From a virus: DNA of 38,759 bases. How positions within the stretch are numbered: the stretch's first letter is position 1; each line of letters begins with the position of its first letter. The DNA is taken from the IMG/VR virus record IMGVR_UViG_3300038956_000256, positions 1 to 38,759 of that record; one strand, 5' to 3'. The notes below the pieces were generated by a model that worked only from the letters and a program-made list of their open reading frames with translations, had not been told where the DNA came from and did not search any database. Below, in pieces: positions 5,301-23,694 of this stretch. A program made the translations under genes and the position numbers.

Positions 5301-5717
5301 TCATTTTAATAAATTGTCTCTGTATTTTTCATACTCTGTGAAGTCCGGGTTACTTCTCGCCAGGTAAACGTCTATAATGCTGCTGGCTTCGACTAAAAAA
5401 TCCCTGTATTCTGCGTTAAGCCTCCGGTCCTCCTGGCTCATGCCTGAGTCTCGGCTCGCTGCCAGCCATTTCTCCGTTATATACTGCTGAGTATTCTGGC
5501 ATTCTGCCCGGAAATATCCGACACTTGAATTATTATATGCCAGCTTTAGCGCCTGAATCTCGTTATCTACCTGTATAACGTTTGCTCTGATCTGATCCTC
5601 GAAGCTCTCCGCTTGGTCGACCTGCTGGACCTGTGCTGCTATGTGCTGCCCTCCAATGATCCCGCCTGCTAGGATCATAAGCAAAATAACTTTTAAGGGG
5701 GTAAATTCTAAATTCAT
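5301..5717 (-). CDS. Membrane-anchored or secreted helical protein at the distal end of the VirB4 region
   Basis: N-terminal hydrophobic segment; ATGA overlap with the upstream gene. Confidence 0.7.
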   Translation of the reverse strand: MNLEFTPLKVILLMILAGGIIGGQHIAAQVQQVDQAESFEDQIRANVIQVDNEIQALKLAYNNSSVGYFRAECQNTQQYITEKWLAASRDSGMSQEDRRLNAEYRDFLVEASSIIDVYLARSNPDFTEYEKYRDNLLK

Positions 5718-6121
5718 GCTCTCCTCACAAATACTTTAACATTCATACCTTTTTTATATTTTACGCAAATATCTCCGTTTCCGAAGACATTTAAGAGGTC
5801 TCCTGCGTTTTTCCCTCTCGATTGAAATACCTCTTCCCACTTGTTCGGCCCTGTTTTGGGTAATAATATAAGATTACATTTTTCCCTTATGTCTGCAGAC
5901 TCAGAAATAAAAACCCAGATATCTGAGTCGAGATAACGAAGAGGGAGATGTACCCGCCCTTTGTTGCCTATCGTGAGGATAGGGAAAGGGTCGTCCCATT
6001 CGTCCAGGTCTACGGCATGATACATACCACTTCCAACCCTTTCTTTTTTAGGTACATCTTCTTTCGTCTCTTCTCCATTCATAAAAACACAATCGCAGGA
6101 GACATTTAAAAAGTTATTCAT
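5714..6121 (-). CDS. Possible tandem AbrB-like (DUF2080-like) DNA-binding protein
   Basis: Two segments IGNKGRVHLPLRYLDSDIWVFI and FGNGDICVKYKKGMNVKVFV with an AbrB-like pattern. Confidence 0.45.
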   Translation of the reverse strand: MNNFLNVSCDCVFMNGEETKEDVPKKERVGSGMYHAVDLDEWDDPFPILTIGNKGRVHLPLRYLDSDIWVFISESADIREKCNLILLPKTGPNKWEEVFQSRGKNAGDLLNVFGNGDICVKYKKGMNVKVFVRRA

Positions 6122-6198
6122 CTTGGAAACCCTCGTTATTACAATTCATATCTTCTATAATAATAAGTAACACAATTTTATTTTTATAATCGCGTGGG

Positions 6199-6307
6199 TT
6201 TTAATCGTTCCCGACGGGCTTAAGCCCGGAGGGACTGTCCCGTTAGGGACAGTACCGCAAGGAGTTAAGCCGTCAGAGCGTCGCTTTCGGTAGAATTGAG
6301 GTTAAAA
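6199..6307. other. GC-rich extended hairpin element (structured RNA or ssDNA signal)
   Basis: Nested pairings TTTTAATC/GGTTAAAA, CGTTC/GAGCG, GACGG(G)CTTAA/TTAAGCCGTC, ACTGTCCC-GTTA-GGGACAGT. Confidence 0.7.
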
Positions 6308-6336
6308 TCAGGCGGATTTCCTGAATTCTGGTTTTC

Positions 6337-8976
6337 TCAGTCCTCTAAATTATCGCTATCGGTCGCCCTCTTTCCTGCTTTCACGCAGGCGAGTATTTTA
6401 TCTTTAAGCCTCTTCCCTCTAGGTGCTGAGAAATCTGGTCCGACCGCGTCGCGGAGTGTCGTTTTATAATAATCATGTGTTCCCGTGAAAATCACATGGT
6501 CAAATTCAGGCTTCCCATCGCGTTTTTTCATCAATAACCTGTCTCGTTTTTCCTGAAGTTCCTTTACCGTATGCGATCTTTCGATTTCAACTTCAATCCC
6601 GATTACAGTTTCGTTAGCAGTCCCCTGGTTGAAGACTAGCTTAACGTCTACTTCCTGCCCTGTGCCGTAGTCGTCAGTAGTTGCGACTGCTCCCATTAAT
6701 GAGCATTCGCCTGCTAGAGCGCAGGCGAAGAGGTAATGTTCCTTTGTCTGGTTTTTGATGTGCCCGTCCTCATTTTCGAGCCCGACTTCAACATAAACCG
6801 TCTTTTTTCCAGCCTGGAATGGATGGTCGAATTGCTCCATTTCGTAGCCGGGTACCCGTATAACCTGATTAAGGTTAATACCAACCAGCCAGTCTTTTAA
6901 AAATACTTTATGTTTATCCTTTACCCACTGTACTCTTTTATCCAGGCTGAATCCAGCCGACTGCTCTGTATTCTCAGAATCAACTTTCAACGATTTCCCA
7001 AAGATTACCCTCTCATCATCTGGTGTAAGTGAATTGAAATAGTTTATACGCGTGTCTCCGATGATCAGGAGGCCCTTTCCTTTTCCTTTCGCTTTAAGTC
7101 TCCTTATGTCGTTTCTAGTGAGGTTAAATTCTTTAACTAGGGGTTTGATGTTATAGGCCGACATGTTAGAAAGCAGGAGCACGTAGTCGGAATTTGTTTT
7201 CATCATGTTTATCATCTCTGGGGGCACGCCTGCTAGGTCTTGGAATACTATTTTAAGATGACCTCCAAAACTGCGAAGCTCTCTGAACATCCTTTCGATT
7301 ACGTGTCGCATCCGTGGAATTTTAACCAGGTTTGCGCCCTCGTCCAAGGTAATGAAAATATGTTTTTTAACCTGCCCCTTCGGGACACATTGGATCTTTG
7401 TGTTAATGATCCCTGTTATAAGCAGGATCATCGCGTCCTGGATATGAGGGGTATCAATGAGCTCGGAAAGGTCAACCATTGTAAATCTATTCCTAAGCTT
7501 TAGGATGTTGTTATTTACAAGGAAACCGTAAGGCCCTTTCTTGGTTATCATGGTTGTATTGTTATAGATTGCAGCAAGGACAGAATTCACATGAGGAGCT
7601 TTGTGCTCATCGTCTTGCATCCACTCATATATGAGAGCCCGCCAGTCGTCGAAGTTAGGCCAGAAGTTGCCATCTTCCCATTTGTCAAGGTTGATGACGT
7701 TTCCGTTGTCGTCTATCACTCCTCGCCTGTGGTATAACTCTACCAGCGAGCTATATACCCAATTTCTCTGAGGGTCTGAAAAACTGTCACCAATTAGGAG
7801 CCCGATGACATCAGGCAAAAGAGACATATGTTTAGAAAACGCAAGCTGGTAGGATCCTAATGAGGTATCCATTCTTTCCGGATCAAAGAAGACCTGGAAC
7901 ATGTTAGGGTTAGAGTCAGCATCTTGTGCTCCCGCCCGCTTATGCCCGATCTTAATAAGCTGCCCACCAAGTTCTTTACATACATTAATGTGGTTTGTGT
8001 CTTCGTCAGCTTTCGGGACTATATGGAAAGCCTCGTCTCCCATCTCAAGAACTCTTTTATCGTCCTTAAGAAGCTCAGTCGACTTCCCGGACCCCGACTT
8101 CCCGATTACTATAGCATGACCTGAGACCAGGCTTCCGTCTTTGAAATTCAGGAAAATTGGGTTATTTGTATCCTCATTGATCCCTAGCCAGTGGCCCGAC
8201 TTCGCTAGCCTCGGGTTTTTATTTCTTAACGGGCTGGTCCTGGCGACCATTTCGCCTGTTGTGGTCGAGAGTAACCTTTCTTTTACAAACGGCGTCGGCA
8301 TCATCATATAATATGCATCGACTTGTCCATATTCTATAATTTCATGTATTACCCTCTTACCGTCCAGGAGAGCAATAATCAGGCTCATAAGGTCGTCTAC
8401 GTCTTTTGTAGTCTTCCCCTTTACCGCAACCAGGAGCGAGAATTCAAACATTCTCATACGGCCCTCGAATACTGCCCGGTTATACTCGTTTATTCCCTCA
8501 GCTATGTAATCTATAATTTTATCGTGAATATTTTTAAAGACGCCATCGTTTTCTGATTCCTGCATTGCAGCCGCCAGGATGTTTTCTCGCCTGGCGTTCT
8601 CTAATGCTTCGATCTCGTCTCGTGGAGGCAGGGGTATAGCAGTCTGCGTAATTCCTATGCAGGCATTTTCCCCAGTCGGAATGTCTAGCAGGTCGTCGAT
8701 AAGCCTAAGATCCTTTCTAGGGGGTATTCCCTGCCTATTAGGATTAATTGGACTTGGATCTCCTACGCTTATAATCTGCATATAGCAGCCGTCAGCGTAT
8801 AGATACCGCCCTCCCCATTTTGGCTTAAAAACAGTAGGAGAAAGGGACAGGACGAGCCGCCTGTCGATCTCCTCAAACTGTTTATACCAGTTTTTAACGT
8901 CTAAAAAACATTTGAATTCAGCCCAGCTTCTCTTTATGGACTTTGGAAGGATCTTATGCATTATTTGAATACTCAT
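6337..8976 (-). CDS. virB4: VirB4/TraC-like secretion ATPase with a C-terminal nuclease-like extension
   Basis: 879 aa; Walker A IGKSGSGKS, Walker B ITLDEGAN, FRELRSFGG and FQDLA motifs typical of VirB4/HerA-FtsK; C-terminal EVDVKL...IGIEVEIERS. Confidence 0.85.
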   Translation of the reverse strand: MSIQIMHKILPKSIKRSWAEFKCFLDVKNWYKQFEEIDRRLVLSLSPTVFKPKWGGRYLYADGCYMQIISVGDPSPINPNRQGIPPRKDLRLIDDLLDIPTGENACIGITQTAIPLPPRDEIEALENARRENILAAAMQESENDGVFKNIHDKIIDYIAEGINEYNRAVFEGRMRMFEFSLLVAVKGKTTKDVDDLMSLIIALLDGKRVIHEIIEYGQVDAYYMMMPTPFVKERLLSTTTGEMVARTSPLRNKNPRLAKSGHWLGINEDTNNPIFLNFKDGSLVSGHAIVIGKSGSGKSTELLKDDKRVLEMGDEAFHIVPKADEDTNHINVCKELGGQLIKIGHKRAGAQDADSNPNMFQVFFDPERMDTSLGSYQLAFSKHMSLLPDVIGLLIGDSFSDPQRNWVYSSLVELYHRRGVIDDNGNVINLDKWEDGNFWPNFDDWRALIYEWMQDDEHKAPHVNSVLAAIYNNTTMITKKGPYGFLVNNNILKLRNRFTMVDLSELIDTPHIQDAMILLITGIINTKIQCVPKGQVKKHIFITLDEGANLVKIPRMRHVIERMFRELRSFGGHLKIVFQDLAGVPPEMINMMKTNSDYVLLLSNMSAYNIKPLVKEFNLTRNDIRRLKAKGKGKGLLIIGDTRINYFNSLTPDDERVIFGKSLKVDSENTEQSAGFSLDKRVQWVKDKHKVFLKDWLVGINLNQVIRVPGYEMEQFDHPFQAGKKTVYVEVGLENEDGHIKNQTKEHYLFACALAGECSLMGAVATTDDYGTGQEVDVKLVFNQGTANETVIGIEVEIERSHTVKELQEKRDRLLMKKRDGKPEFDHVIFTGTHDYYKTTLRDAVGPDFSAPRGKRLKDKILACVKAGKRATDSDNLED

Positions 8977-9863
8977 ACAGTAACCACCCCTATATTTTTC
9001 ATGCTCCGCATTTGCTTCGTTATCAATTCGTACTCGTAAGGCGAGGTAATTAGCCTTGACTCAATACCGGAATTTTCGAGAAATAGCTGGTAAGATTTTA
9101 TTACCCTGGATACTTCCAGGTTAGCTTTTTCTTCATCTGTATAATAGCCAGTACCGAGGAAAATAAAATAAGCCCAATTAACCCGCCCAGATAGACTTTG
9201 TAAAAATTGTTTTGTGTAAAAAAGCCCGACTCTCTCGGCAGGTCCCAGCTCCTCTGGTGGTAATTTGAGCCTTTCCTCGTATTGCTCGGCTATGTCGCTC
9301 ATGTCCTGGCTCTGAATCGTGTGGTATTTCTGCAGGATACCAGGCTGCAGGCTGTATAGAAGCAGTGCAGTGTTCTCGTTAAATTCATCGAGGTCCTGTA
9401 CGTTCTGGGGATTGACTACGAAAATAACCCCTGTGTTACACTTGTATCTTTTGTATATTGTCAGGATCTTAAACCAAATTATGCCGAGCTCAGACATTTT
9501 CTTAACTTTTACGTGCTCGTCGATGTCTTTGTCGCTTGTTTTTTTATCATCATGTTTATAAACGAAATCTTTTCTCATTATCCATCTATACAAAAAGTCT
9601 AAGAAATTACCGACTTTATAGAAGACCGCGTCGTCTTTTAAGCAGATCCAAACAGTAGCAGTAACCACCAATCCGAGTCCGATATAAAAATGAAGTAGAT
9701 AATTATCATACCCGTAAACTCGATATATCTCTCTTGCACGGCTCGCGAGCTCCAGGTCTAAAAAAGCAGTCCCAGCTGAAATCAGGAACTTTTTAGATTT
9801 TTCCCTGGTCCCTGAGAGCCCCGTGTAAGCCTTCTTCAACGTCGCTGGGGGTGCGTTGGTCAT
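8973..9863 (-). CDS. Membrane protein upstream of VirB4 (VirB3/PrgI-like by position)
   Basis: N-terminal TM segments then a soluble domain; stop overlaps the virB4 start. Confidence 0.6.
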   Translation of the reverse strand: MTNAPPATLKKAYTGLSGTREKSKKFLISAGTAFLDLELASRAREIYRVYGYDNYLLHFYIGLGLVVTATVWICLKDDAVFYKVGNFLDFLYRWIMRKDFVYKHDDKKTSDKDIDEHVKVKKMSELGIIWFKILTIYKRYKCNTGVIFVVNPQNVQDLDEFNENTALLLYSLQPGILQKYHTIQSQDMSDIAEQYEERLKLPPEELGPAERVGLFYTKQFLQSLSGRVNWAYFIFLGTGYYTDEEKANLEVSRVIKSYQLFLENSGIESRLITSPYEYELITKQMRSMKNIGVVTV

Positions 9864-9876
9864 TTAATAAGCCTCC

Positions 9877-10827
9877 TTATGCGATTTTTGCGAACCCTAC
9901 AACTGACCTTAATGTGTTAGGACTAAACAATTTTATCCATATCGGGCAAGTGAGTGCTATGAAACAAATTAAAAACATTAAGATAGCTAGACCTCCGTAT
10001 ACTACCATATCAACGAGGAACCCGAAGCCTCCGTCTAAGGTATAACCGACAGTTTCAGTTAACAGACTAACTAAAACTGGCTGGACAAATACCTGGACCG
10101 CCACGTATTCTAGAATTAAAATTCCTACCCATCGTGTCTTTTTCCATGCGAGCATTATACCTAGATAATACCAATATCTTGACGCAAAAAGCAGTATAGC
10201 CGTCCTTATCGACATGTAAATTTTAAGGCCCTTAGCAGATAACCCAAAAATTATATAATTAGGGAGGTTATCTGAAGAGACGATCACCTGATCGAGGACA
10301 GAAGTATCCATCCGGCCAACCCAGTTATTACAGAGCCAAAACATACCGATTAAGATCCCTGGGCCGCAAAAGAACCATAAGGCGAGGTTTATTCCCGTTT
10401 TAAACACGTCCTTCGGCTCGTAATATGTCGCTCTGCCGTGGAAAAATTCTGTTATTCCCCCGGCTGCATCCGGGTCTAAAATCTGCACTAATGCAAGCAG
10501 AGCGACAATAATAACCAGGATTTTCGCCAAAATAATAAAAATTTGTATTGTCTCTTTCTGGGTTTTCTGGAAGGTTTCATCCTCTAATATTGTTATTGGA
10601 GAGGCTATGAAATCGAAAACGCCGACTCTCGCTTCATCGCCGGTATTGTTTGAACTTACGAGCTTTGAGTCCTTGACCAGCCCGTCCGCTTGTTTTGTAA
10701 CCCAGTCATCAAAGGCCCCGCTGATTATTCCTTTGAGAGCTGCAGTGTTATCGTCGTCTGCAGCCATGACCGGGACGACTGAAAAAGAAAATAAAAAAAT
10801 AATACCGAAGATGGGAAGCAGTCGCAT
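9877..10827 (-). CDS. Polytopic membrane protein (VirB6-like by topology and position)
   Basis: Signal peptide plus about 6 TM helices; in the virB4 operon. Confidence 0.6.
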   Translation of the reverse strand: MRLLPIFGIIFLFSFSVVPVMAADDDNTAALKGIISGAFDDWVTKQADGLVKDSKLVSSNNTGDEARVGVFDFIASPITILEDETFQKTQKETIQIFIILAKILVIIVALLALVQILDPDAAGGITEFFHGRATYYEPKDVFKTGINLALWFFCGPGILIGMFWLCNNWVGRMDTSVLDQVIVSSDNLPNYIIFGLSAKGLKIYMSIRTAILLFASRYWYYLGIMLAWKKTRWVGILILEYVAVQVFVQPVLVSLLTETVGYTLDGGFGFLVDMVVYGGLAILMFLICFIALTCPIWIKLFSPNTLRSVVGFAKIA

Positions 10828-10843
10828 CGTTTCCGCTCTCCTT

Positions 10844-11230
10844 TTATGTTATGTAGAAGACAAAGTCGATAATCATTAAGGCAACTTTCATATAAACTAT
10901 AATTTTTACGACCTTAACGAGTCCTTCCTGAGCTGATAGCTCGTCCCTTATTGCTCTCGGGTCTCTTTTCCCGTGAACAATGTTGACGATAACAAGCAAG
11001 GTACAATAAAGAGCGACGATAATAGCCGCGATATAAACCAGATAGTTGACTATATCCAAGAAATCTAGGAGATAGCCAAACAAATTAAACTGGGTTAATT
11101 TATTGTACCCGTTCACTGCGTCGGGTTGGATATACACCGACGTGCCATTCTGCGAGACTGCAGCCGAAGCTGTGCTCGCCAAACCTGCCAGGGACAACCA
11201 GGCAGCCGTAAATACTTGTTTAGTTTTCAT
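10844..11230 (-). CDS. VirB2/TrbC-like pilin candidate
   Basis: 128 aa; signal peptide ending ASA-A followed by two TM helices joined by a basic loop; first gene of the operon. Confidence 0.55.
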   Translation of the reverse strand: MKTKQVFTAAWLSLAGLASTASAAVSQNGTSVYIQPDAVNGYNKLTQFNLFGYLLDFLDIVNYLVYIAAIIVALYCTLLVIVNIVHGKRDPRAIRDELSAQEGLVKVVKIIVYMKVALMIIDFVFYIT

Positions 11231-11260
11231 ATAAATCCAATATGTCTCGGAAGTATATAA

Positions 11261-11292
11261 ATTTTAGTGTTCTTTATATACAACACTAAAAT
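11261..11292. promoter_or_regulatory. Palindromic operator around a TATA-like core, upstream of the pilin/VirB4 operon
   Basis: ATTTTAGTGTT-ctttatatac-AACACTAAAAT (perfect 11-bp arms, 10-bp spacer); extra half-sites near 11296 and 11304. Confidence 0.75.
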
Positions 11293-11372
11293 AAGAACAC
11301 TTAAACACTATCAGAAGAAATAATAAAAGAAAAGAGTATGTAATTTATTCGGATAAACTACATACTTAAAAA

Positions 11373-13268
11373 TTAAAAAACGATTTTTAAGAGTTGGTAT
11401 AAAGCAAAGAGAGTCAGGCAGATTTTAAGGATCACAATAATATTCTCGAAGCTTAGGAGCCTCTGAGCTTTGTACTCATGTAGGAAATACTCTGACTCTG
11501 TTGGGATCTCCTCGTATATCGTATATGCTCTGATCTTTAGTTTATCCTGTTCGAATTCTCCTTCAATATACAAGCCGTCTCCGAAGTGGTCGAGATCTCC
11601 GTCCCAATAATTGACCTCTGTTATGTTTGTGTGAATTATACCGTTATCCCCTCTTATGCGTTCTCCGATCTCTAAAACATTCTTTACCGTCTTCCCGTTA
11701 TATTCATACTCTACCCTCTGCAGGCCCTCCGGAACCGAGGGGTAAGGTGCGACCGTGGTATAATTTTTAATTCCTATGTGTTGATCTATTCGGAAATTTA
11801 CTTTATCAGGTCGAGGAAGGACCGCCGGAGCTGGTACCCGCTTCGCCTCGAAGACTTCCTTAGTAGTCTTTAGCTTTTTAACCTTCTCCCCTTTTGAGTT
11901 TTTGCTGCTTACGGTATAGTGCATTGTTACGGTCATTTTCGCGTATGCTTCCCCGTTTTCGATCCCTTTCTCGATCTGCTTTTCTATCCCGTTGACCCCA
12001 GCATTAAAGAAAGTATTGGCTGGTGAAGGCATGGCGATCGCTTTAACGAGTACGCTTTCGTTATCCGGGATGTAAGGCACGCCGTTTTTATAAACGACGT
12101 CGGCGAAGCCTGCGATAGTTATACCTCCTCTTATCTTCCCTTTGTCCCTTTCCTCTACTGGTATTTTGATACTATCCTCGGTTTGGTTATATCTTGCATT
12201 ATCGACGAAATCGATGTTAAGGATCTCAAGAAGACCCCCAAAGACTTTTTCCGTCATTTCGACACTCGGCTGGTTCTCGAAGGATATGTCGCCGACTGGA
12301 ATACCCATAGTTATTAGTTCTTCAGCATTGACAAACTTGTTATCATGTATATACACGTTTTCCCCGCCATGGTACCAAATAGCACGGAGCCCAGGATCAG
12401 AGAAAACGTTGTTAAAAACTTCAATATTTTTTGTTTTGAATGGTTTATTTCTTGCATCGTACCCGTGTGAGACTCCCGCGTTCCCGATCTGCAATCCGTT
12501 GTGCCCGCCCTTATACGCTCCGTAACTGTCCCCTGTGTATGCGAAAAAAATGTTATCGTGTATTTTGCAGTTCTGACAGTTATCGAGCCTGGCGCAGTCG
12601 CTTGTTATACCAGCAATCTTATTTTTATATATTGTACCATTTAGCACACAGGAAAAGAAAATACCTTCATGCTGGCAGTTTGATATGAAATTATTATAAC
12701 ATGCGACTCCCTTAGAAAATCTAATATAAATTCCGTCGCTAAAGGCATTATACAGCTTCATATCATGTATTTTGATATTGCTTCCAAAATTGCTTTGCCA
12801 ACCGCCGAACAAAATAAGTTTTTCGCAGTCGTGTCGCGTGTCGCTTCTTGAATTCGCGTAACTTCGAGGTAGGTTTCCAATGTTGCCGTCAATTTGGAAA
12901 CCTGATATTTCGACATTATGCACAGACTCCCTAGGGTTGCATATTACCCCGATCTGGCCCGTGAACCATTGCGAAGAAGTGGGTGCTACCCTTATAATCG
13001 CGTTTGGGTCTCCGGTAAGATGAATATTTGATTTTATAATTACTGGACCATCTACGAGATAGACACCAGGGTTAAGATAGACAGTACCGCCGCCGTTCTC
13101 GCTTGCTTCTTCAATCGCTTTGTTGATAACGTCCTGGTCGTTTGTAGCTCCCGTCGGGCTTACGATGTAATCACCTGCAGCCGACGCAGTCCCTGTAAAA
13201 AACCCTGAAAAAAATAAAGACGACAAATATAAGAATAAAATAAATGTTTCCCGGAGACTCATAAACAT
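11373..13268 (-). CDS. Secreted, C-terminally anchored right-handed beta-helix protein (disaggregatase/pectate-lyase-like)
   Basis: Signal peptide; DQDVINKAI...TVYLNPGVY start; parallel beta-helix repeats (IHDMKLYNAFSDGIYI, NNFISNCQHEGIFF); C-terminal TM helix. Confidence 0.75.
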   Translation of the reverse strand: MFMSLRETFILFLYLSSLFFSGFFTGTASAAGDYIVSPTGATNDQDVINKAIEEASENGGGTVYLNPGVYLVDGPVIIKSNIHLTGDPNAIIRVAPTSSQWFTGQIGVICNPRESVHNVEISGFQIDGNIGNLPRSYANSRSDTRHDCEKLILFGGWQSNFGSNIKIHDMKLYNAFSDGIYIRFSKGVACYNNFISNCQHEGIFFSCVLNGTIYKNKIAGITSDCARLDNCQNCKIHDNIFFAYTGDSYGAYKGGHNGLQIGNAGVSHGYDARNKPFKTKNIEVFNNVFSDPGLRAIWYHGGENVYIHDNKFVNAEELITMGIPVGDISFENQPSVEMTEKVFGGLLEILNIDFVDNARYNQTEDSIKIPVEERDKGKIRGGITIAGFADVVYKNGVPYIPDNESVLVKAIAMPSPANTFFNAGVNGIEKQIEKGIENGEAYAKMTVTMHYTVSSKNSKGEKVKKLKTTKEVFEAKRVPAPAVLPRPDKVNFRIDQHIGIKNYTTVAPYPSVPEGLQRVEYEYNGKTVKNVLEIGERIRGDNGIIHTNITEVNYWDGDLDHFGDGLYIEGEFEQDKLKIRAYTIYEEIPTESEYFLHEYKAQRLLSFENIIVILKICLTLFALYQLLKIVF

Positions 13269-13290
13269 TTAGACGTCGGAAAGTTATTTA

Positions 13291-13322
13291 AATTTAGTGT
13301 TGTTTAAATATATCATTAAAAT
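13291..13322. promoter_or_regulatory. Second copy of the 11261 operator, in a divergent promoter
   Basis: AATTTAGTGTT-gtttaaatat-ATCATTAAAAT, same 11+10+11 geometry, also preceded by TCGGAA. Confidence 0.65.
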
Positions 13323-13339
13323 GTGGAGGTTCAAATCTC

Positions 13340-13699
13340 TTGAATAGATACATAAAAGCGTTATTGGTTGCGGCCCTCCTTATTTCCCTGGTAGGTGCTG
13401 CGAGTGAAAAGACTGAAACCGGACAGAGTGCAGAGAAGATAAATTATACTGTTAAAAATCCGGTCCGTGATACTGTCGAGATAGTCCAGGATGAGGAGAA
13501 GCTTAAACAGGCCATAAAGGACAAGGTGAAAGAGAAAGCTAATAATATAAGCGTGCCTCGGGAAAGCGGGCAGATTATAAACGCTCGGGCTGCCTGCACT
13601 CAGCTAGTAGATAAGGCGAAGGACTACAGCAGCTCAGGGATAGGAATACCCAAGGGGGCAAATAACAGCACCCAGAAAAATAATACGAGCTCAAAATAG
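13340..13699 (+). CDS. Secreted hypothetical protein
   Basis: Signal peptide MNRYIKALLVAALLISLVGAA; GGAGGT RBS, TTG start. Confidence 0.7.
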   Translation: MNRYIKALLVAALLISLVGAASEKTETGQSAEKINYTVKNPVRDTVEIVQDEEKLKQAIKDKVKEKANNISVPRESGQIINARAACTQLVDKAKDYSSSGIGIPKGANNSTQKNNTSSK

Positions 13700-13797
13700 T
13701 AACGAAATGATGGAATTAAAAAAGTTTACTGGAACTTAATTAATATGACAATTTCCGAGAATGGAGAGATACTTTTTTAACTCTTATTTTCTTTTTG

Positions 13798-15981: not shown

Positions 15982-15985
15982 GGTT

Positions 15986-16960
15986 TTAAGTTTGTATTGT
16001 TACCGTGCCCTCGATTCTGAGTTTTATATAAACCTTTTCTGCTTCTGATGTTCCATTCGACCCCGCTTCGAAAACCGTGATGTATGCCGTTTTCGTTTCA
16101 GTATCGGTTGAAACGGCATTGGTCGCTGTCAGTGTGACTGTGTAAGTGCCAGGAGAAGTGTATCGATGTGTAGGATTTTGCTCTGTTGAAGTTGTTCCAT
16201 CTCCAAAATTCCAGAGCCACGATCTTGGTAACCCTGTCGAAGTGTCTGAAAATGAGAATACCGTATCAGTTGTCCCGCTTCTGACAGGTGCGATGAAATT
16301 CGCATCTATCCGCATGCTGTCGTATTCGAAATTTGAGAATTTTATGGTTATGGGGTTGCCACTCGCTGGACCTTCTCCCTGCGCGAGAACTCCAAAAAAC
16401 ATGCAGATGTACGCGCTTGTATGCGGAATATCGTCTCCTGTATAGTTCCAGTCGAGGATTGTAGTACCATCCGAGGCAACTACTGAATAGTAAACATAGT
16501 CGGGAGTCCATTCTATTGTGTAGACTACCCCGCTATCGTTTATATAGGGGTTGGTGCTCAGGCAACCATAGTAAATATTTTCAGGGTGCGAGTCGATGCT
16601 TGCAGGATGGCAGGAAAACCAGATTCTCTCGTCATACCCAGGCCACTGATTGATTTCAATATCTAGCTCGTTGGGTATGTCTGTGTTGGGATCGTCATAG
16701 TAGGTGTAGAGACCCAGGCACGCGTTTCTCTCGATGTTTAAGGTAGGGGAGCTTGCCGTCCACCTTATACGCCCGTATTTGTAAGGGGTCGGGGTCTCGA
16801 AAAGTACACCTTTGTAGATGCCATCGAACTTCTGCATTCGCAGATTGAGGTCTCCGTTATCGTCTACCCATGCATTCGAGCGATCTACCCTATCTCCCTG
16901 ACACCAAACCCATGAAATACCTTTCCAGGGTAGCCTGTCGTTTTCTATGTACGTTACCAT
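15986..16960 (-). CDS. GH16-like glycoside hydrolase fused to a PKD domain
   Basis: ELDIE (E-x-D-x-E catalytic motif), YTIEWTPDYV; PKD core SWLWNFGDGTTSTEQNPTHRYTSPGTYTVTLT. Confidence 0.8.
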   Translation of the reverse strand: MVTYIENDRLPWKGISWVWCQGDRVDRSNAWVDDNGDLNLRMQKFDGIYKGVLFETPTPYKYGRIRWTASSPTLNIERNACLGLYTYYDDPNTDIPNELDIEINQWPGYDERIWFSCHPASIDSHPENIYYGCLSTNPYINDSGVVYTIEWTPDYVYYSVVASDGTTILDWNYTGDDIPHTSAYICMFFGVLAQGEGPASGNPITIKFSNFEYDSMRIDANFIAPVRSGTTDTVFSFSDTSTGLPRSWLWNFGDGTTSTEQNPTHRYTSPGTYTVTLTATNAVSTDTETKTAYITVFEAGSNGTSEAEKVYIKLRIEGTVTIQT

Positions 16961-16970
16961 GATATCCTCC

Positions 16971-17357
16971 TTATATCAGTTCAACCTCGCCCTCGAAATC
17001 AATACCTACGGTCTGATTCAATTCTTTAATCATCGCCCTCAATATATTCTTGTCTTCAAGATCATTCGCTCGCTTCTGAGCCTGTACTTTTGCAACTTCA
17101 AGTGCCTGATCCTTGAGAGATGTAATTAGTGCCCGCCGTTCTGCTTCTGTTTCAGGAAGATTGTAAGGTATTGCGACAGGTACGGGAAACTCAGGATAGA
17201 GTGGGAGAGGTTTCCCGTTCTGTCCAATTTTATCTGTCAGAATTATATTCCCATCTGGATCTCTCACGGGGTTACCTCGATCTTCCCACGTGATTATTAT
17301 GTTGCGTCCTGTGTCTGGGGCATATGCTCTGAGTCGTCTGAGTTTGATTGTTGCCAT
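16971..17357 (-). CDS. Hypothetical protein in the head module
   Basis: 128-aa ORF, tightly packed in the operon. Confidence 0.7.
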   Translation of the reverse strand: MATIKLRRLRAYAPDTGRNIIITWEDRGNPVRDPDGNIILTDKIGQNGKPLPLYPEFPVPVAIPYNLPETEAERRALITSLKDQALEVAKVQAQKRANDLEDKNILRAMIKELNQTVGIDFEGEVELI

Positions 17358-17358
17358 G

Positions 17359-19536
17359 TTATATCACCATTCCGTAAGACTGTAAGAATTTTGTTATTGA
17401 GCCTTCTATAGATGCCTCTAGGCAATCTGGAATATTATTAGAATCACTATCAAGTGCAGGATTACTATGCGTCACTCGCCCGTGATACAACTGCCCGTTT
17501 CCGGGGAATAATTTCAATTCGTGAATAGTCCCGCTTTCGTCTTTTTTGAATTCGAGTTGTTTAGGGCGGTATGTGTGCAGGAAAAAATCAATTTCTGTTT
17601 TAGCGGGATCATATAGAGCTATCCAGGGTTTTGAGAGGTTTTGTAAGCCGTATGAGGCGTTTGTGGAGTCTGCGAAAACGTATGTTGTGCTGCCCATGTT
17701 GTGAATAGTGGGAGCGTATCTCAGAGTAGGCACTGCTGAAAAAATAGAACCAATCGAAACGGTATGATCAAAATACACGAATTCACGGAGGGTACAATTT
17801 GAATATCCAAGCACCGAAGACGAACCTTGATACGCGCCCAATTTTATTGGGTTCGCGGAATCACCCGCCCATGTACGCGGTGTAGAAAGTGTGTATTGTG
17901 TATCATTGAGATTTACAACTATGTTGTTAGTGCCCGGTTTGCCATCCCAACTCATTTGGAATATATATTCAGTATTGATTGAAAGGACATCAGTAATTGA
18001 TAGACGTGTGACGACTGTCCCATCTGAAATCCATATCTCTATATTACGATTTGATCTGAGATAAATAAATAATCCTCTAGCTCCCGTGTAAGCTGCACCC
18101 GTATCAAAAAGAGACTGATCTATCAATGTTGCACCAGTTTTAAATTTTATGCCAATCGCAAACCCATTTTCAACTGCTATTTTTTTTGTTGTTGAAATGT
18201 ATCCAGTTGATCCGTCAAACCTAAACCCACCATCAAGCTTTACAACGCCACCTACTATAGTTCCAGTATTATTATTCCCGCTCAAATCAGGGACAATATT
18301 TCCGACCGTATCAGTATAATTTATAACTAATTTTAATCGAACTTTATTAAAATTCGTCCGTTCGTTGTCACTCGGAGGCAGGTCTACTTTCAATCCGATT
18401 CTCTTATCAGTCCCTAAATTATTACTATAAGTAATACTCCCCGAAGAACCGTTTACCTTAGCTGCTGCTGATCCCTTGGGGAAAACTGCTCTACCTAATC
18501 CAGTTCCGTAGACATCATCAAGTTTTGTACCGTCCAAAAACGTGCAGTTTGCGCTTGTTTGTGATACCTGAGAATAAGCACCGTCTAAAGAATGTGTAGA
18601 ACAGAGTTGATATGCTGTGCCGTCGTGTGTATAGAGTTGTAGGGATGTCTTGGCGAGGTTGTCAGGGGTTTGAATTTCCAGTGTTGTTTGGCGGGCTACA
18701 TCTGCCTGAATATCATCAAGATAAAACGTAATATCTGATTCGTCTTTTTGGTCTGTGCCTATATATAGCGTAACATCGTTTGACCAGTCGATTGTACCGG
18801 AAACGGTTGACGGGTAAAGCCCCTCAGTTCCAGCAGGAGCGTGTATCGGCAAGACAAAGCTAGTTACAGTATTTGCAGGTATTGGGAATCTAGTGCCTCG
18901 AAATTCGACTCTATTCTCGCCTTGTGCAATCGAAACAAATAAATTTTTAGTCGTATTACACTCGATTTTAAATGTTAGGAACTGTTTACCAGCGAGTGAA
19001 ACGGTTTTAATTATTTTGAACCCTACTGATATCGTGCCTCTACCTACTGCTTTTATTCTGCCGTTTTCAGTAGTAAGAGATGTTAACGCACCCGTGCCTG
19101 CGCTCCATCCTTCAATGGTAGTACCGTCACTAATAACAGTAGGATTATTACTCACTGAAGTATTCGCAACAACAAACTCTTCAGTAATACTATGATTTGT
19201 AGTATCCACACTCAACAAATTTAGCTCTTTCAGCTTCCCCGCCGATAACGTTTTTGAAGAATTCTGACCGTTGACATCATGTAAATATACCCCGTCGCCT
19301 TCGATGATATTGACAGTCCCTACACAATAATCAGGAGAGCCAGACCCTTTCAGACCGCCGAATGGAGATTCAGCGATTGTTAAACGGTTGCTGTTGAGAG
19401 TATATTCATTATTTAGAGGGAGGATGTCAGGATTTCCAGAGGGGAGAACTAAGACTTTGCCCTCTGTCTCGATTGTGATAGACTCCCCCTGGGGATCTAT
19501 TCGCTTGAAGGGGGCCGAAGGGGTACGTAGTTTCAC
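17359..19536 (-). CDS. Virion fibre/adhesin with a LamG/ConA-like domain
   Basis: 725 aa, S/T/G-rich beta protein; VPDLSGNNNTGTIVGG...FRFDGSTGYI LamG signature. Confidence 0.7.
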   Translation of the reverse strand: MKLRTPSAPFKRIDPQGESITIETEGKVLVLPSGNPDILPLNNEYTLNSNRLTIAESPFGGLKGSGSPDYCVGTVNIIEGDGVYLHDVNGQNSSKTLSAGKLKELNLLSVDTTNHSITEEFVVANTSVSNNPTVISDGTTIEGWSAGTGALTSLTTENGRIKAVGRGTISVGFKIIKTVSLAGKQFLTFKIECNTTKNLFVSIAQGENRVEFRGTRFPIPANTVTSFVLPIHAPAGTEGLYPSTVSGTIDWSNDVTLYIGTDQKDESDITFYLDDIQADVARQTTLEIQTPDNLAKTSLQLYTHDGTAYQLCSTHSLDGAYSQVSQTSANCTFLDGTKLDDVYGTGLGRAVFPKGSAAAKVNGSSGSITYSNNLGTDKRIGLKVDLPPSDNERTNFNKVRLKLVINYTDTVGNIVPDLSGNNNTGTIVGGVVKLDGGFRFDGSTGYISTTKKIAVENGFAIGIKFKTGATLIDQSLFDTGAAYTGARGLFIYLRSNRNIEIWISDGTVVTRLSITDVLSINTEYIFQMSWDGKPGTNNIVVNLNDTQYTLSTPRTWAGDSANPIKLGAYQGSSSVLGYSNCTLREFVYFDHTVSIGSIFSAVPTLRYAPTIHNMGSTTYVFADSTNASYGLQNLSKPWIALYDPAKTEIDFFLHTYRPKQLEFKKDESGTIHELKLFPGNGQLYHGRVTHSNPALDSDSNNIPDCLEASIEGSITKFLQSYGMVI

Positions 19537-19537
19537 T

Positions 19538-19867
19538 TTAAGCCCTCTGTGATATTATAACGCTGTATTTTGTCGCGTTTGTGGTGTCATGGTTAGTAGC
19601 CTTAAAGATGAGGTAAGCCGGTACTATATCGACGGGGATCTGAGCGACCCTTAAAGCTGTGCTTAAAGTAACTGGCTGCAGGGGAGCGTTATTAACCCCG
19701 TCAGGGGATGAGCCTACATTTACCGTTAAATTGGTGCTGTCTCCCTCGTTTACCACATAGATAATTATCTGGTTTAAGGTGTCTTCCAGTTTCACGACTA
19801 CCGGATCGTTGGTAGCCCCTGCGCTTACTGCTGCGCTGCTTATTACTTTCACACTGTTAAAGCTCAT
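19538..19867 (-). CDS. Small beta-sandwich virion protein (possible spike or fibre base)
   Basis: 109 aa of alternating beta pattern (LTVNVGSSPDG); immediately upstream of the fibre gene. Confidence 0.5.
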   Translation of the reverse strand: MSFNSVKVISSAAVSAGATNDPVVVKLEDTLNQIIIYVVNEGDSTNLTVNVGSSPDGVNNAPLQPVTLSTALRVAQIPVDIVPAYLIFKATNHDTTNATKYSVIISQRA

Positions 19868-19880
19868 TTAAACCACTTTT

Positions 19881-20477
19881 TTATTCTGGTATAACTGTCC
19901 CTATGCCCTGCATAAGCTGGGCCCGGACTGCGTCTTCTAGTGTTGCCTTTGTGTTATAGAAGGCTGAGATAAGCCGGTCCCTGCACTCGTCGAGCCCTGA
20001 GTTTTTATTCCACTTTACCTTTACCCTTTTAGCCTGTGATCTGTCCTGATCCTTCCCTATCACGGAGGCAGTAACCTCGAAGATCTCCGGGGTTATGGCC
20101 TGTACCTCGATAGAATCTGCGATAATAATTTCGTCCTTGTTAACTCCGACTTTCACGATCTTCTCGTACTTCGACGGATCGCCTGAGAAGATTACCTCCG
20201 GGATAGTTACGTGGCTCATGCCGTAAAGAACCAGCTCACGGTAAGCAATTTTTTCAGCTTCCTTCCTGAAATAATCGATAGCTTCCTCTTTTGCCAGGGT
20301 CAGAGCCTTGTTTAGACCCTGCATCGTTTGCTCTTCCGGAATGACAATAAAATCTTTTTGCGGGTTGCTGCCGTCTGCGTAGGTATTAGCAGTATCCTTT
20401 AAGACAATATGGATAGCTCCCTCGTCGTCCACAGTATAGGCTGGAGTGTTTGCAGGTACTATATTAATAGTTACCAT
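19881..20477 (-). CDS. Hypothetical protein downstream of the portal
   Basis: 198-aa ORF, GAGGT RBS. Confidence 0.7.
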   Translation of the reverse strand: MVTINIVPANTPAYTVDDEGAIHIVLKDTANTYADGSNPQKDFIVIPEEQTMQGLNKALTLAKEEAIDYFRKEAEKIAYRELVLYGMSHVTIPEVIFSGDPSKYEKIVKVGVNKDEIIIADSIEVQAITPEIFEVTASVIGKDQDRSQAKRVKVKWNKNSGLDECRDRLISAFYNTKATLEDAVRAQLMQGIGTVIPE

Positions 20478-20511
20478 TTTTTTAACCTCTTTTAACCTCT
20501 TTATATAATCG

Positions 20512-21750
20512 TTATTCTTCAGCTTCTTCCCCGTTCACTAGATAGAAACCGCTCCATTTTCGGAACTCGTCGCGCTCTATAACTCCCGTATTATACATTT
20601 CCTGGACCTCTGAGGCTGTGAGCTTGACCTTTGAGAGCTCCTCGAATTTTATTTCGATCGAGTCCTCGGGCTTCCCTTTAGATACGAGCCAACGGTTAAC
20701 GAAATCCTGGGTAATATTCTCTGTGATCTTCTGCAGGCCCTCCAGGACGACGAGCCGGTCTTCTTCTACCAGATAGCCGCTCGCGTAGGTTGTCCCGCTA
20801 GCCTTTCCCATGGTTAGGGGGGTCTGGAATAACCCGAGCTGGATTTCGGTTTCTAGCGACTCCTTAAAGCCCATGACGTCTAGGCTGCCTTTTGCGTCGA
20901 TCGGAATAACCTTTAAACCGATTGCAGAGATGTCCTCGTTTTCTGAGAGGTTTTTATTATCTTCGAGCCATTCGTCGTGAAGCTTCCCGGCGTCCTCCGG
21001 GGTTATTATTTCAGCTTCGACGAGCTTTTCGAGCATAACATGATCGTAATGATAACGCCCCATGCCATAGCGTTTCACAAAAGAGACATACCCCTTATTG
21101 ATATTCAGCAAATTTCTTATACTGAGCTCTAGGGGATCGAGTAAGCTGGACCCATAGAGCCCGATTGTTTCACGCTGCTTAATGTCTTCCTGCACGTAGT
21201 CCCAGGGGTTTAAGTTCCCGATTACTAACTCGGAAGGGTCGAAGGTCTTCTGAGATGTAGAGCCCTCGTTTATTACTACAGTGGCGATAGGTGCCTGCAT
21301 CACATCGGTAGGTCTGTCGTTTGGTTTTACTCCTTCCGGTAGGACTGTTGTATAAGGCATTAATAAAGGGTATAGCGTGAAATGGGTTTCATCCCCGGCA
21401 GGCTTTCCGATGATTATGCCGTCTCGACATAGTAACCGCCCGATCGTGGCGACCTGCTCGTTAAGGTTTGCTTTCTTCCTCCAGGTCTCAAACTCTTTAA
21501 TTAGGGTTTTTTTCTTGCTGTCTGCGCTCATCCCCTTAGACAGCATAAGGCCAAGTTTGTTAAGAGGGACTGAGACATAAGGGGAAGCCGTGCTGAGCTG
21601 CTGATAATATCTGAAACGGTTATTAGTGTCAAAATTTGGAATACCGCCTATCGTGCTGGTTTTGTCGTCCCGCTTTGTTACATTAAGGGAGGCACCCAGC
21701 CGGATTTTAGAGCCTGCGGTCTTTGCTGCGGTTGTCGTTTTAGAAACCAT
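20512..21750 (-). CDS. Portal protein
   Basis: 412 aa, helical; GSSLLDPL...LLNI clip region; C-terminal IEIKFEELS...MYNTGVIERDEFRKW; located downstream of the terminase. Confidence 0.75.
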   Translation of the reverse strand: MVSKTTTAAKTAGSKIRLGASLNVTKRDDKTSTIGGIPNFDTNNRFRYYQQLSTASPYVSVPLNKLGLMLSKGMSADSKKKTLIKEFETWRKKANLNEQVATIGRLLCRDGIIIGKPAGDETHFTLYPLLMPYTTVLPEGVKPNDRPTDVMQAPIATVVINEGSTSQKTFDPSELVIGNLNPWDYVQEDIKQRETIGLYGSSLLDPLELSIRNLLNINKGYVSFVKRYGMGRYHYDHVMLEKLVEAEIITPEDAGKLHDEWLEDNKNLSENEDISAIGLKVIPIDAKGSLDVMGFKESLETEIQLGLFQTPLTMGKASGTTYASGYLVEEDRLVVLEGLQKITENITQDFVNRWLVSKGKPEDSIEIKFEELSKVKLTASEVQEMYNTGVIERDEFRKWSGFYLVNGEEAEE

Positions 21751-22123
21751 GTGGGGGTAACCTCGTATTTCATCTGTTCACGCTATTAACCATATTATAT
21801 GTTCGCTTGTATAAAAGAAATTGTATAAAAATATTAAGCTAGATAAAAACTAGAAAATGAGATTAAGATCAGGAAAACGGATATATCAAGATTAACCAGA
21901 GCGTTTAACAGTGAGCCTGAGAAACACAAAAAAGTAAACATAAAAGAAAAGAAAACAGGAGAAAACAAAAAAATGGAAAAAGGAGAAGCAGAAAGCCTGG
22001 GACTGGCTCCAATCAGTCCCGAGGCGTTAGAATCAGGTTAAGTAGACCATTCTAATAATTAGGCTAACCTATTATTTATATCTTTTTGTATCATAGACGG
22101 ATTCCAGAGATGACCATTCCATA

Positions 22124-22217
22124 AAAAAAAAGATATCTCTTATTATCTCTCTAATACTTTATACGAATACGTATTCGTATAATTAATTAATTAATTAATA
22201 AGAGACCTCTTTTTTTT
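22124..22217. repeat. 94-bp dyad-symmetric element with a perfect 24-bp palindromic core
   Basis: Core TTATACGAATACGTATTCGTATAA (22159-22182); outer arms AAAAAAAAGAtaTCTCTTATTA / TAATAAGAGAccTCTTTTTTTT share the same centre; (TAAT)n tract at 22180-22199. Confidence 0.85.
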
Positions 22218-22272
22218 GGTATCTTTTATTTAAACGTTTCTATCAATTTGTTTCGTTTCGTTATCGAGTGCC

Positions 22273-23694
22273 TTATCTCTTTTTCCTGGATTTACTCATA
22301 GATGAGTAATTAAATTTCTTTACTTTCTTTTTGCTTTCGATCATCACTTGGAAAGCGTAGCTTATGTTATCGACCTGGTCGTCGTGTTCTCCGTAAGGGA
22401 AAGCGACGAGCTCGTCTTCGAGATCCTGGACCCAGGGAGCCTCGGCTCTAAAGAATATACGCCCGGCAGCCATTCGAGCGGCTGCAGGTATAGCCCTCGT
22501 TACTTTGTCCCTAGTCCCTGGCTTAAGCTCCTTAACTGGTAGCCCCTCTTTATCAAGAAACTGATAGAGAACTTTACCAGCTCCAACGCTTTCGACCCAT
22601 TGCGAAGAGGGTCTCCATTTACGATACTGCTGCCAGAATAGGTTTACCTGATCCGGGCTTTCGAGCCTGAGCCTTAATAAGTCAAGTAATACCAGGTCGT
22701 TGTCTGGAGTCATCGCCCATGTCGCAAGGACAAAATAATCAGCCTTTGAGCTGGCTGTCGCTGCAGGGTCGCAGGTCTGGAAAATCTCGCAGTCATCATA
22801 CAAGAATTTCCTTTCCCCTAGGTCCACCACTCCGCCCTCTAGGGTAGCATACCGGAAATACTGAGTTTTGAAAATTGCGCCCTCTTCGTCCTGGGGTGCC
22901 TGCTGGTAGAGTGCAGCCCACCAATAAGGCCCGAGGGTTTCTTTAATATTTTTGAGTGCTGCCTCATCGAATCTCTGCCTAAAGAGTGCCTCGCCGGGTT
23001 TCCTGCCTAGCGGATCGTTTGACCCTGCTAGAGCTGGCAGGTTAATAACGGTCCACTTATGCGCCTCATCTTTGAGGAGCTGCCCGGACAAATCGGCATC
23101 ATGCCATCGAGTTTGAATAATGACCACGGACCCGCCAGGCTCCAGTCTCGTAAATGCCGTGCTTTTAAACCAGTCCATGGTCTTGTCTCTGTATCTCTTG
23201 CTCAGTGCCTGCTCTGCGTTTTTAATCGGATCGTCGATTATAAGCAGGTCTGCACCCTTTCCGGTGATTGCTCCCCCTACTCCTGCGGTCATCATCCCGC
23301 CAGCATGTCCTTGTATGTCCCAACGATCCCGAGCCGAGGAGTTAGCAGCGATTTCTATGCCTAGCTTCGTCGGTCCGTGTTCCTGGATCAAGGAGCGGAC
23401 TTTATAGCCCCAAGAGGCTGCAAAATCCGCTTCATAACTTGTCAGGATAACCCTTCTATCTGGATACTTCGAGAGGTACCAGGCAGGAAAGAATTTCGAG
23501 GTCAGTTCGCTCTTTCCGTGTCGCGGGGGCATGAAAATCATCAGGTTTTTAATGACGCCTGCGGCTACCTGGACCAGATAAGAGTCTAATAAAAGCAAGT
23601 GATCGGCAGGGTACCACCTACCACAAGATAACGAATAAGCCAGGCTCGCGGGGGAAACATTCACGGGGGGTGCTGGCAAGCAGCTCATCATCAT
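22273..23694 (-). CDS. terL: Terminase large subunit
   Basis: Walker A MPPRHGKSELTS, Walker B LLIIDDPIK, coupling motif IQTRWH, RNase H-like CDPA and HDDQVD. Confidence 0.95.
   Translation of the reverse strand: MMMSCLPAPPVNVSPASLAYSLSCGRWYPADHLLLLDSYLVQVAAGVIKNLMIFMPPRHGKSELTSKFFPAWYLSKYPDRRVILTSYEADFAASWGYKVRSLIQEHGPTKLGIEIAANSSARDRWDIQGHAGGMMTAGVGGAITGKGADLLIIDDPIKNAEQALSKRYRDKTMDWFKSTAFTRLEPGGSVVIIQTRWHDADLSGQLLKDEAHKWTVINLPALAGSNDPLGRKPGEALFRQRFDEAALKNIKETLGPYWWAALYQQAPQDEEGAIFKTQYFRYATLEGGVVDLGERKFLYDDCEIFQTCDPAATASSKADYFVLATWAMTPDNDLVLLDLLRLRLESPDQVNLFWQQYRKWRPSSQWVESVGAGKVLYQFLDKEGLPVKELKPGTRDKVTRAIPAAARMAAGRIFFRAEAPWVQDLEDELVAFPYGEHDDQVDNISYAFQVMIESKKKVKKFNYSSMSKSRKKR

Follow-up and report, generated by a model that had tools for sequence, protein, structure and literature searches.

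The stretch of DNA analysed here, called the window, is the full IMG/VR virus record IMGVR_UViG_3300038956_000256 (38,759 bp). It is a fragment of a virus genome, with a CheckV completeness of 59%, and no terminal repeat was found in it. Nearly all of its genes, from 26.8 kb down to 5.3 kb, are carried by the minus strand. Within this array lies a block of seven genes, running from a beta-helix gene (11373-13268) down to position 5301 and encoding, in this order, a glycanase, a pilin-like protein, a polytopic membrane protein, a two-helix anchor, a VirB4-type ATPase and two small proteins. We interpret the block (5301-13322) as a seven-gene membrane machine derived from a type IV secretion system (T4SS), or conjugation apparatus, of the monoderm/archaeal kind (MPF-FATA-like, Ced/Ted-like), and it is very probable that such a T4SS-derived machine belongs to the virus. 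The genes of the block are the following.

11373-13268, minus strand: beta-helix (pectate-lyase/disaggregatase-like) protein of 631 aa (Pfam Pect-lyase_RHGA_epim, 1.3e-14; Beta_helix, 4.6e-9)
10844-11230, minus strand: pilin-like protein of 128 aa, with a cleavable-type signal peptide (A-x-A), two hydrophobic helices and a short charged loop
9877-10827, minus strand: polytopic membrane protein of 316 aa, with a signal peptide, an outer segment of ~70 aa and 4-5 helices
8973-9863, minus strand: membrane protein of 296 aa, with a two-helix hairpin and a 200-aa cytoplasmic alpha/beta domain (predicted model)
6337-8976, minus strand: VirB4-type ATPase of 879 aa (NCBIfam, Foldseek, VIA-align)
5714-6121, minus strand: soluble protein of 135 aa; a gene of 128-188 aa lies at the same place in all relatives
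5301-5717, minus strand: protein of 138 aa, hydrophobic helix at the N-terminus; closes the block, position conserved

Gene content and conservation of the block

The original prediction, made from the sequence of the window, had described an intact-looking four-gene operon. Its pilin-like, polytopic, small membrane and VirB4 genes were all present, but the block contains seven genes and not four. The first gene of the module encodes the 631-aa beta-helix protein, which carries a signal peptide and a C-terminal membrane anchor. The anchor was found in all seven homologues and the signal peptide in six of them, the G004 copy having no N-terminal hydrophobic segment at the threshold used. This glycanase is a candidate envelope-breaching enzyme.

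The same block was found in the related contigs and genomes L001-L006 and G001-G004, with gene order and protein topologies kept over ATPase identities ranging from 94% down to 39%. The sizes of the proteins in these relatives were ~120-160 aa for the pilin-like protein, ~310-370 aa for the polytopic protein, ~280-298 aa for the anchor and ~125-188 aa for the two small proteins. The ratios of nonsynonymous to synonymous substitution rates (dN/dS) of the block genes ranged from 0.05 to 0.23; in the comparison with the closest relative (~92% nucleotide identity), VirB4, the polytopic protein and the glycanase each gave 0.12, the pilin-like protein gave 0.19 and the 296-aa protein 0.05. The block is intact and under purifying selection, and the conserved gene set, the topologies and the dN/dS values bear out the impression of an intact operon.

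The ATPase and its membrane partners

The Walker A (GKSGSGKS, residues 292-299) and Walker B (D545-E546) motifs of the ATPase are intact and invariant in 26 homologues. Its six NCBIfam matches were, in order, VirB4_plasma, the VirB4 of mycoplasma integrative and conjugative elements (ICEs) (4.5e-28), conju_CD1110 (1.7e-25), VirB4_CagE (1e-15), TraC (1.6e-11), CedB (4.4e-4) and a marginal VirD4-like match (0.009). The CD1110-family VirB4 is that of Tn916-like elements, and the Mbov_0397-family protein is an ICE ATPase. The Pfam family P-loop_TraG gave a sub-threshold match (23.8 bits for a cutoff of 25.8), tblastn retrieved annotated VirB4 genes on conjugative plasmids of Firmicutes at 23-24% identity, and a phmmer search against PDB sequences gave no match. 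Judged by its sequence, the ATPase is a distant VirB4 branch lying outside every curated equivalog.

An AlphaFold model of the ATPase was built from a 26-sequence alignment (pLDDT 73). The top Foldseek match of this model was the VirB4 of T. pseudethanolicus (4ag6; 5.5e-16, TMt 0.76), and an exhaustive VIA-align search ranked VirB4 4ag5 first (Z 33.1, rmsd 3.4, 351 aligned). The Z scores of other ATPases against the model were 24.9 for DndH, 21.1 for HerA, 18.8 for TrwB, 16.8 for the STIV2 packaging ATPase B204 and 13.6 for FtsK. By sequence and by fold, the protein is a VirB4-type ATPase and not a HerA or packaging ATPase; a grouping with the latter two, named beforehand as the outcome that would undo the VirB4 assignment, was thus not what the comparison returned. 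An assignment to the HerA, FtsK or packaging ATPases, prompted by a weak match to phrog_2666 ('terminase'), was also ruled out by the NCBIfam, Foldseek and VIA-align results.

The ATPase departs from the bacterial VirB4 proteins at both ends. In the NCBIfam alignments, ~130-230 N-terminal positions of the bacterial profiles are missing, and a conserved extra domain of ~190 residues (~680-870; DNA ~6337-6940) is present at the C-terminus. In this domain, E757, D777, E797, K810 and R811 are invariant and E795 is nearly so, and the predicted order of secondary structures is alpha-beta-beta-beta-alpha-beta. A restriction-endonuclease-like or nuclease-like fold is plausible from this prediction, and the predicted order together with the conserved acidic residues suggests work on nucleic acids. 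A profile search of the domain against PDB sequences returned matches at chance level only, and in structure searches with the whole model the hit lists were taken up by the ATPase domain. Contig L027 encodes an ATPase that can be aligned over its full length to that of the window, extra C-terminal domain included (23% identity, 3e-52). Since L027 carries an Orc1/Cdc6 gene and shows no virion gene, this sequence comparison indicates that the extra domain predates the viral lineage.

The gene upstream of the ATPase encodes the 296-aa membrane protein, and its stop codon overlaps the start codon of the ATPase gene, the two being translationally coupled. A model of this protein (pLDDT 67) gave nothing below 1e-3 with Foldseek, and no usable match was obtained in the ESM Atlas. 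In a second look with VIA-align, the best five rows were all the N-terminal domain of TrwK/VirB4 (15-279), with Z scores of 7.0-7.2 that are within the chance range. A complex of ATPase residues 1-290 with residues 96-296 of the 296-aa protein was modelled with a score of 0.80, the best of three controls scoring 0.00; such a score is reached by 58 of 80 solved complexes and by 2 of 110 mismatched pairs. Contacts agreed between runs to at least 54%, the pLDDT of the partner was at least 72, and the modelled contact is a strand-to-strand pairing between residues 105-117 of the ATPase and 177-183 of the 296-aa protein. The model supports binding of the two proteins, and the 296-aa protein is a candidate split VirB3-plus-VirB4-N protein, that is, a membrane anchor carrying the N-terminal part that is missing from the ATPase. 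The 'VirB3' label initially given to this gene should be refined, since the modelled protein fits better with a fusion of a two-helix anchor and a VirB4-N-like domain. A VirB8-like NTF2 fold was also considered for this protein and rejected, as Foldseek gave no such match below the above limit and VIA-align placed the VirB4 N-terminal domain first, with a middling Z score.

The labels VirB6 and VirB2 had been proposed for the polytopic and pilin-like proteins, and topology and gene order fit both of them, but the sequence searches did not show membership. In the ESM Atlas, the top ten matches of the polytopic protein were all TrbL clusters (score 0.90). No Pfam TrbL match was found in nine members of its family, even at E <= 10, nor in 44 distant polytopic relatives retrieved by a full hidden Markov model (HMM) search, and hhalign gave a probability of 0.6% against a genuine TrbL_4 protein; none of these three tests linked the protein to VirB6 by sequence. 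The polytopic protein is thus a VirB6/TrbL-like candidate by topology, gene order and the embedding lead. The VirB2/TrbC-like topology of the pilin-like protein is conserved in eight homologues, and no family match was found for it in Pfam or NCBIfam. By analogy with the 118-aa protein of the bacterial conjugative element L034, which has this topology, it is a VirB2/TrbC-like candidate. None of the three membrane proteins matched a T4SS or Ced model of NCBIfam at E <= 0.1.

Virion genes, borders and control of the block

The following genes of virion assembly and replication are found upstream of the block.

15097-15981, minus strand: MuF-like minor head protein (Pfam, 2.7e-10; phrog_115, 3e-18)
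20512-21750, minus strand: probable portal (Phage_portal, 6e-5, below cutoff; 70% identical to the G004 gene located between TerL and MuF)
22273-23694, minus strand: TerL, terminase large subunit (Pfam Terminase_6N, 1.6e-15; phrog_38, 2e-103)
24652-26754, minus strand: MCM replicative helicase (Pfam, 2.2e-80)

The original prediction had named the MuF, portal, terminase and MCM genes, and all were recovered there on the minus strand, the portal with weak support. It had also placed tail genes further along; this was not confirmed, since beta-helix/disaggregatase-like and DUF2341 proteins are encoded there instead and no tail-tube or tape-measure gene is found in the window. The Caudoviricetes hallmark set of TerL, portal and HK97-fold capsid on one genome is complete when the capsid genes of the relatives G004, G003 and L003 are considered.

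The IMG/VR genome G004 (53,001 bp), which is closed by an exact terminal repeat of 82 bp, has a gene order collinear with that of the window. MCM, TerL (62% identical to that of the window), portal (70%), MuF and the glycanase come first; they are followed by the module (ATPase 70%), small genes, a coiled-coil protein resembling a scaffold, an HK97-type capsid (Linocin_M18, 2.7e-15) and further unannotated genes. The module is thus embedded in the morphogenesis region, in the same orientation as its genes and between portal/MuF and scaffold/capsid. The same layout was found in G003 (71 kb, CheckV 100%), whose ATPase is 39% identical to that of the window and which has its own TerL, unmatched by that of the window, together with Phage_capsid_4, tape measure and MCM genes and the module. 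The synteny check suggested at the outset thus found VirB4, TerL and MCM on single contigs in both G004 and G003. In L003, capsid, tail-terminator and tape-measure genes are located 3-9 kb from the ATPase gene. A megablast search of positions 5301-25000 of the window against the phage collection gave no match, and a tblastn search of the ATPase against this collection returned only two weak, unannotated gut records.

Besides the window, five contigs carry the module together with virion genes (G002, G003, G004, L001, and L003; four sample/assembly ids are named, and G002 and L001 are near-identical in the aligned proteins). The window is a linear metagenomic contig, and the inverted duplication at the ends of G001 has the look of an artefact, so that a false joining of virus and plasmid sequences of one metagenome during assembly had to be considered. 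With the five other contigs, among which G004 is closed by its terminal repeat, we regard such a chimera as extremely improbable. The module is on the same replicon as the virion genes, as seen in the repeat-closed G004 and in the deeply diverged second lineage of G003.

In G001 (L023/L024), the closest relative, a PKD-gene region is found at both ends in opposite orientation (13-677 and 22566-24034), which is either an assembly artefact or a real inversion. The small-gene cassette of G001 is also ordered differently from that of the window.

The borders of the block and its upstream regions contain three further features.

13832-14563, plus strand: small tyrosine recombinase; its plus-strand cassette (13340-14883) separates the module from MuF
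13294-13319: second copy of the palindrome below, with 2 mismatches, just upstream of the beta-helix gene
11264-11289: perfect palindrome TTAGTGTT-N10-AACACTAA with a TATA-like core at its centre, ~35 nt ahead of the pilin-like gene

The recombinase raises the question of whether the block is a nested mobile element, that is, the remnant of an ICE or plasmid delimited by the recombinase cassette and useless to the virus. In the window, the block and MuF are separated by the tyrosine recombinase, G003 has an integrase at the corresponding site and L002 has one close to the block, and related modules occur on archaeal-type contigs on which no virion gene was seen within the 10-kb flanks. Distant relatives of the polytopic protein on other contigs, one of them beside the Orc1/Cdc6 gene of L027, show the same local gene order with VirB4-like ATPases. 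The L027 ATPase belongs to a sister clade of the viral ATPases that comprises at least 184 clusters, on contigs labelled Methanosarcina, Methanoperedens, ANME-2 and others, some of which have a disaggregatase-like gene in the block.

However, no direct repeats, attachment (att) sites or insertion sequence (IS) ends flank the block in the window, and no step in GC content or composition was found there; att sites or IS ends separating the VirB4 block from the virion genes had been named beforehand as what would undo the initial reading. The block also keeps its place in G004, G002 and L001, in which no recombinase cassette is present at this junction, it persists in two lineages whose TerL types differ and whose ATPases are 39% identical, and its dN/dS values, given above, are low. 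A nested element is thus very improbable. We read the recombinase cassette as the viruses' own variable lysogeny cassette and not as the border of such an element. The block is integral to, and vertically conserved in, a head-tail virus lineage linked to Methanosarcina, and is not a recent insert.

Apart from the two sites listed, no copy of the palindrome was found in the window (0.21 expected), and a different TATA-centred palindrome lies at the same place in G003. From its sequence and location, the palindrome is a candidate operator overlapping the promoter. An operator belonging to the module had been predicted, and this prediction stands for the sites themselves, their role as operators being inferred. 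Small DNA-binding proteins encoded in the window are candidates for the protein that would bind the palindrome. A terminator-like site follows MuF, and together with the palindromes it points to separate control of the module.

These features bear on another explanation, in which the machine would secrete proteins or serve virion release, a late glycanase and a VirB4-powered channel or pilus breaching the methanochondroitin/S-layer envelope for egress or delivering proteins by which neighbour cells are prepared. It would account for the location of the block in the morphogenesis region of G004 and G003, where it shares the strand of TerL, portal, MuF and capsid, for the disaggregatase-type beta-helix enzyme that is always the first gene, and for the failure to find VirD4, a relaxase or an origin of transfer; in addition, Pfam scans of the 40 main open reading frames (ORFs) of the window revealed no recognisable lysis genes. 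However, no role in virion egress is known for a VirB4 accompanied by VirB6-like and pilin-like proteins, the operator-like palindromes and the terminator-like site after MuF argue for separate control, and the conserved extra domain of VirB4 would suggest work on nucleic acids. We consider egress or protein secretion unlikely, but it is, with a benefit to the lysogen (below), one of the two main rivals to contact transfer.

The presumed host is Methanosarcina, as suggested by the disaggregatase-related and DUF1699 domains and by two metagenome-assembled genome (MAG) contigs labelled Methanosarcina. Among isolate and MAG genome contigs, copies were found on six short MAG contigs only, these two and four binned to bacteria. 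The latter (L030-L033), which carry the viral VirB4, are in Desulfosporosinus, Cloacimonas, Acholeplasmataceae and Proteiniphilum MAGs and are probably mis-binned virus contigs from digesters. The possibility that the window is a chromosomal provirus bounded by a tRNA-Gln gene was rejected: the record is a virus contig, and its disaggregatase-like, DUF1699-like and DUF2341-like genes recur in related virus contigs.

Comparison with transfer systems and proposed function

As had been noted from the sequence, neither VirD4 nor a relaxase is visible in the window. VirD4 was not matched in the Pfam scans of the 40 main ORFs, and PF02534 and PF10412 gave no six-frame match in the window, G002, G003 or G004. 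No relaxase was found in the Pfam ORF scans, and PF03432 was absent in six frames, the other relaxase families being covered by the ORF scans only. Archaeal conjugative elements without recognisable relaxases have been described (PMC9905601, PMC6563490), but most archaeal conjugative elements pair VirB4 with VirD4 (PMC6563490).

The best sequence models and the best structural match of the ATPase come from the monoderm MPF-FATA/FA T4SS of Firmicutes and mycoplasma ICEs. In the bacterial element L034, the genes for MobL, SSB and VirD4 precede that for a small two-helix protein, after which come TrbL_4, a pair of small proteins, VirB4 and an NlpC/P60 hydrolase. The viral block resembles it in the small signal-peptide/two-helix protein, the polytopic protein, the small proteins, VirB4 and the adjacent wall-degrading enzyme. 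In contrast to the monoderm systems, the viral module shows no VirD4, relaxase, SSB or VirB8-like gene, its wall enzyme is a beta-helix glycanase instead of NlpC/P60 or a lytic transglycosylase, its VirB4 is split (as modelled) and has the extra C-terminal domain, and it is carried by the genome of a head-tail virus that encodes TerL, portal and capsid.

The Ced system of Sulfolobales and Aeropyrum and the Ted system of Thermoproteales have a similar minimal set of VirB4-like, VirB6-like and VirB2-like proteins and no relaxase, but they are chromosomal and import DNA, whereas the present set is viral and includes an anchored glycanase (PMC9905601). The block might thus benefit a lysogen, as a Ced/Ted-like DNA importer or as an adhesion or aggregation pilus expressed from a prophage or plasmid state. 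Chromosomal VirB4/VirB6/VirB2-type importers lacking both relaxase and VirD4 (PMC9905601), the candidate operator and the integrases of some members would be in line with this, as would the weak match of the CedB model to the ATPase (4.4e-4, 19 bits for a cutoff of 700), which is the sole sequence link to Ced/Ted. However, no sequence link to CedA, CedA1 or CedA2 was found, and the best matches of the ATPase are conjugative VirB4 proteins of monoderm bacteria and mycoplasma ICEs, not CedB. Furthermore, a costly seven-gene block kept in deeply diverged genomes of capsid-limited size would argue for a direct benefit to the virus. A lysogen benefit is thus quite unlikely.

The pNOB8/pING plasmids of Sulfolobus and thaumarchaeal ICEs also encode VirB4/TrbE, VirB6-like and VirB3-like proteins without a recognisable relaxase, but they usually have VirB4 with VirD4/TraG and carry no virion genes (PMC6563490). 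Phage-plasmids of the P1, N15 and SSU5 types combine virion genes and plasmid-type functions on a single replicon; the present viruses differ from them by a conserved mating-apparatus-like module, and a recent review states that none of the known phages, prophages and phage-plasmids is conjugative (PMC12282955). The Methanosarcina-associated virus MetMV (67.8 kb, 8.7-kb repeat), compared by its description only, shares the presumed host genus and has a genome size near that of the 53-58 kb relatives, but no secretion or conjugation genes are mentioned in the paper describing it (PMC7164591). No report of a VirB4 module in a tailed virus turned up in our literature search. To our knowledge, no archaeal conjugative plasmid or ICE inside a tailed virus has been reported.

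We propose that the machine may transfer viral DNA by contact, a function that we advance tentatively, somewhat short of an even call. In this mechanism, the anchored beta-helix glycanase would open the methanochondroitin/S-layer envelope, the polytopic protein would form the membrane channel, and the small two-helix protein would provide a pilus or conduit. The 296-aa protein would complete the N-terminal domain of the ATPase and tether it to the membrane, as the model suggests, and the split VirB4 would power assembly and move DNA to the touching cell, its fused C-terminal domain handling the DNA in place of a relaxase and coupling protein. The virus genome could then spread particle-free inside cell aggregates, besides its spread by virions. 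Integrase genes in the window, G003 and L002 would fit a carrier state. This is the best explanation that we have as a whole, and with its function included we hold it at just under an even call. Its strongest form is doubtful: these would be 'conjugative viruses', in which one replicon spreads both by virions and by a mating channel free of relaxase and coupling protein between touching Methanosarcina cells, the split VirB4 with its fused nuclease-like domain processing and pumping the DNA.

Several observations weigh against contact transfer. The ATPase falls below all curated family cutoffs (97.5 bits for a cutoff of 590 with VirB4_plasma, 89.4 for 325 with conju_CD1110, and 57.1 for 643 with TIGR00929), and no sequence match to a VirB6/TrbL or VirB2 family was obtained for the polytopic and pilin-like proteins. 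No coupling protein was found, though VirB4 is usually accompanied by VirD4 in Sulfolobus plasmids and thaumarchaeal ICEs (PMC6563490); likewise, no relaxase was found and no origin of transfer (oriT) was defined, candidate sites being a hairpin at 6199-6307 and the palindromes at 11.2 and 13.3 kb. The location of the module within a same-strand morphogenesis block would also suit a late role in the lytic cycle. The closed genome G004 has no integrase match, so that not every member shows signs of a stable carrier state. Finally, no capsid gene, nor any tail-tube or tape-measure gene, is present in the window, which is due to the window being a genome fragment.

Viruses and conjugative elements are treated as two separate vehicles of gene transfer, and a T4SS-derived machine kept by viruses through deep divergence challenges this division. 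If the machine moves DNA, the virus could spread inside Methanosarcina aggregates without free particles, avoiding the thick methanochondroitin matrix, and it would provide a model for relaxase-independent archaeal conjugation. If it acts instead in egress or protein delivery, this would represent a new use of the VirB4 machinery. Methanosarcina is genetically tractable.

Other features were observed in the window and its relatives. Three beta-helix proteins are encoded in the window (11373-13268, 31718-32977, and 34563-36050), two of them with a disaggregatase-related domain; those at 31718-32977 and 34563-36050 are probably virion fibres or spikes. An IS200/IS605-type TnpA gene (33831-34244, plus strand; Y1_Tnp, 7e-43) adjoins a DUF1699 gene and, since it is not at that place in G002, G003 or G004, is probably a recent IS insertion. 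A virus-borne tRNA-Gln(UUG) gene is located at 29411-29488 on the minus strand, and an 18-nt copy of its 3' part, 94% identical, lies 215 nt away (29635-29652); this copy may be what is left of an attP-type site, or else a second, degraded tRNA.

In G003, RAMP-family and TnpB/Cas12f-like genes were found at 33716-34534 and 65162-66283 (L017:14716-15534 and L019:8162-9283), and Cas6b and RAMP genes lie near the VirB4 module on a contig of the sister clade (L037:19931-21663); elements of this kind thus carry components related to CRISPR. At 30266-30333 of the window, a 14-bp unit (TATGGAGGAAAGTG-like) occurs in four tandem copies at the start of a small plus-strand ORF. Finally, a 66-nt AT-rich element is present three times (911-976, 1877-1942, and 2266-2331), with identities of 64-86%; it heads successive plus-strand cassettes of small genes and looks like a repeated promoter.

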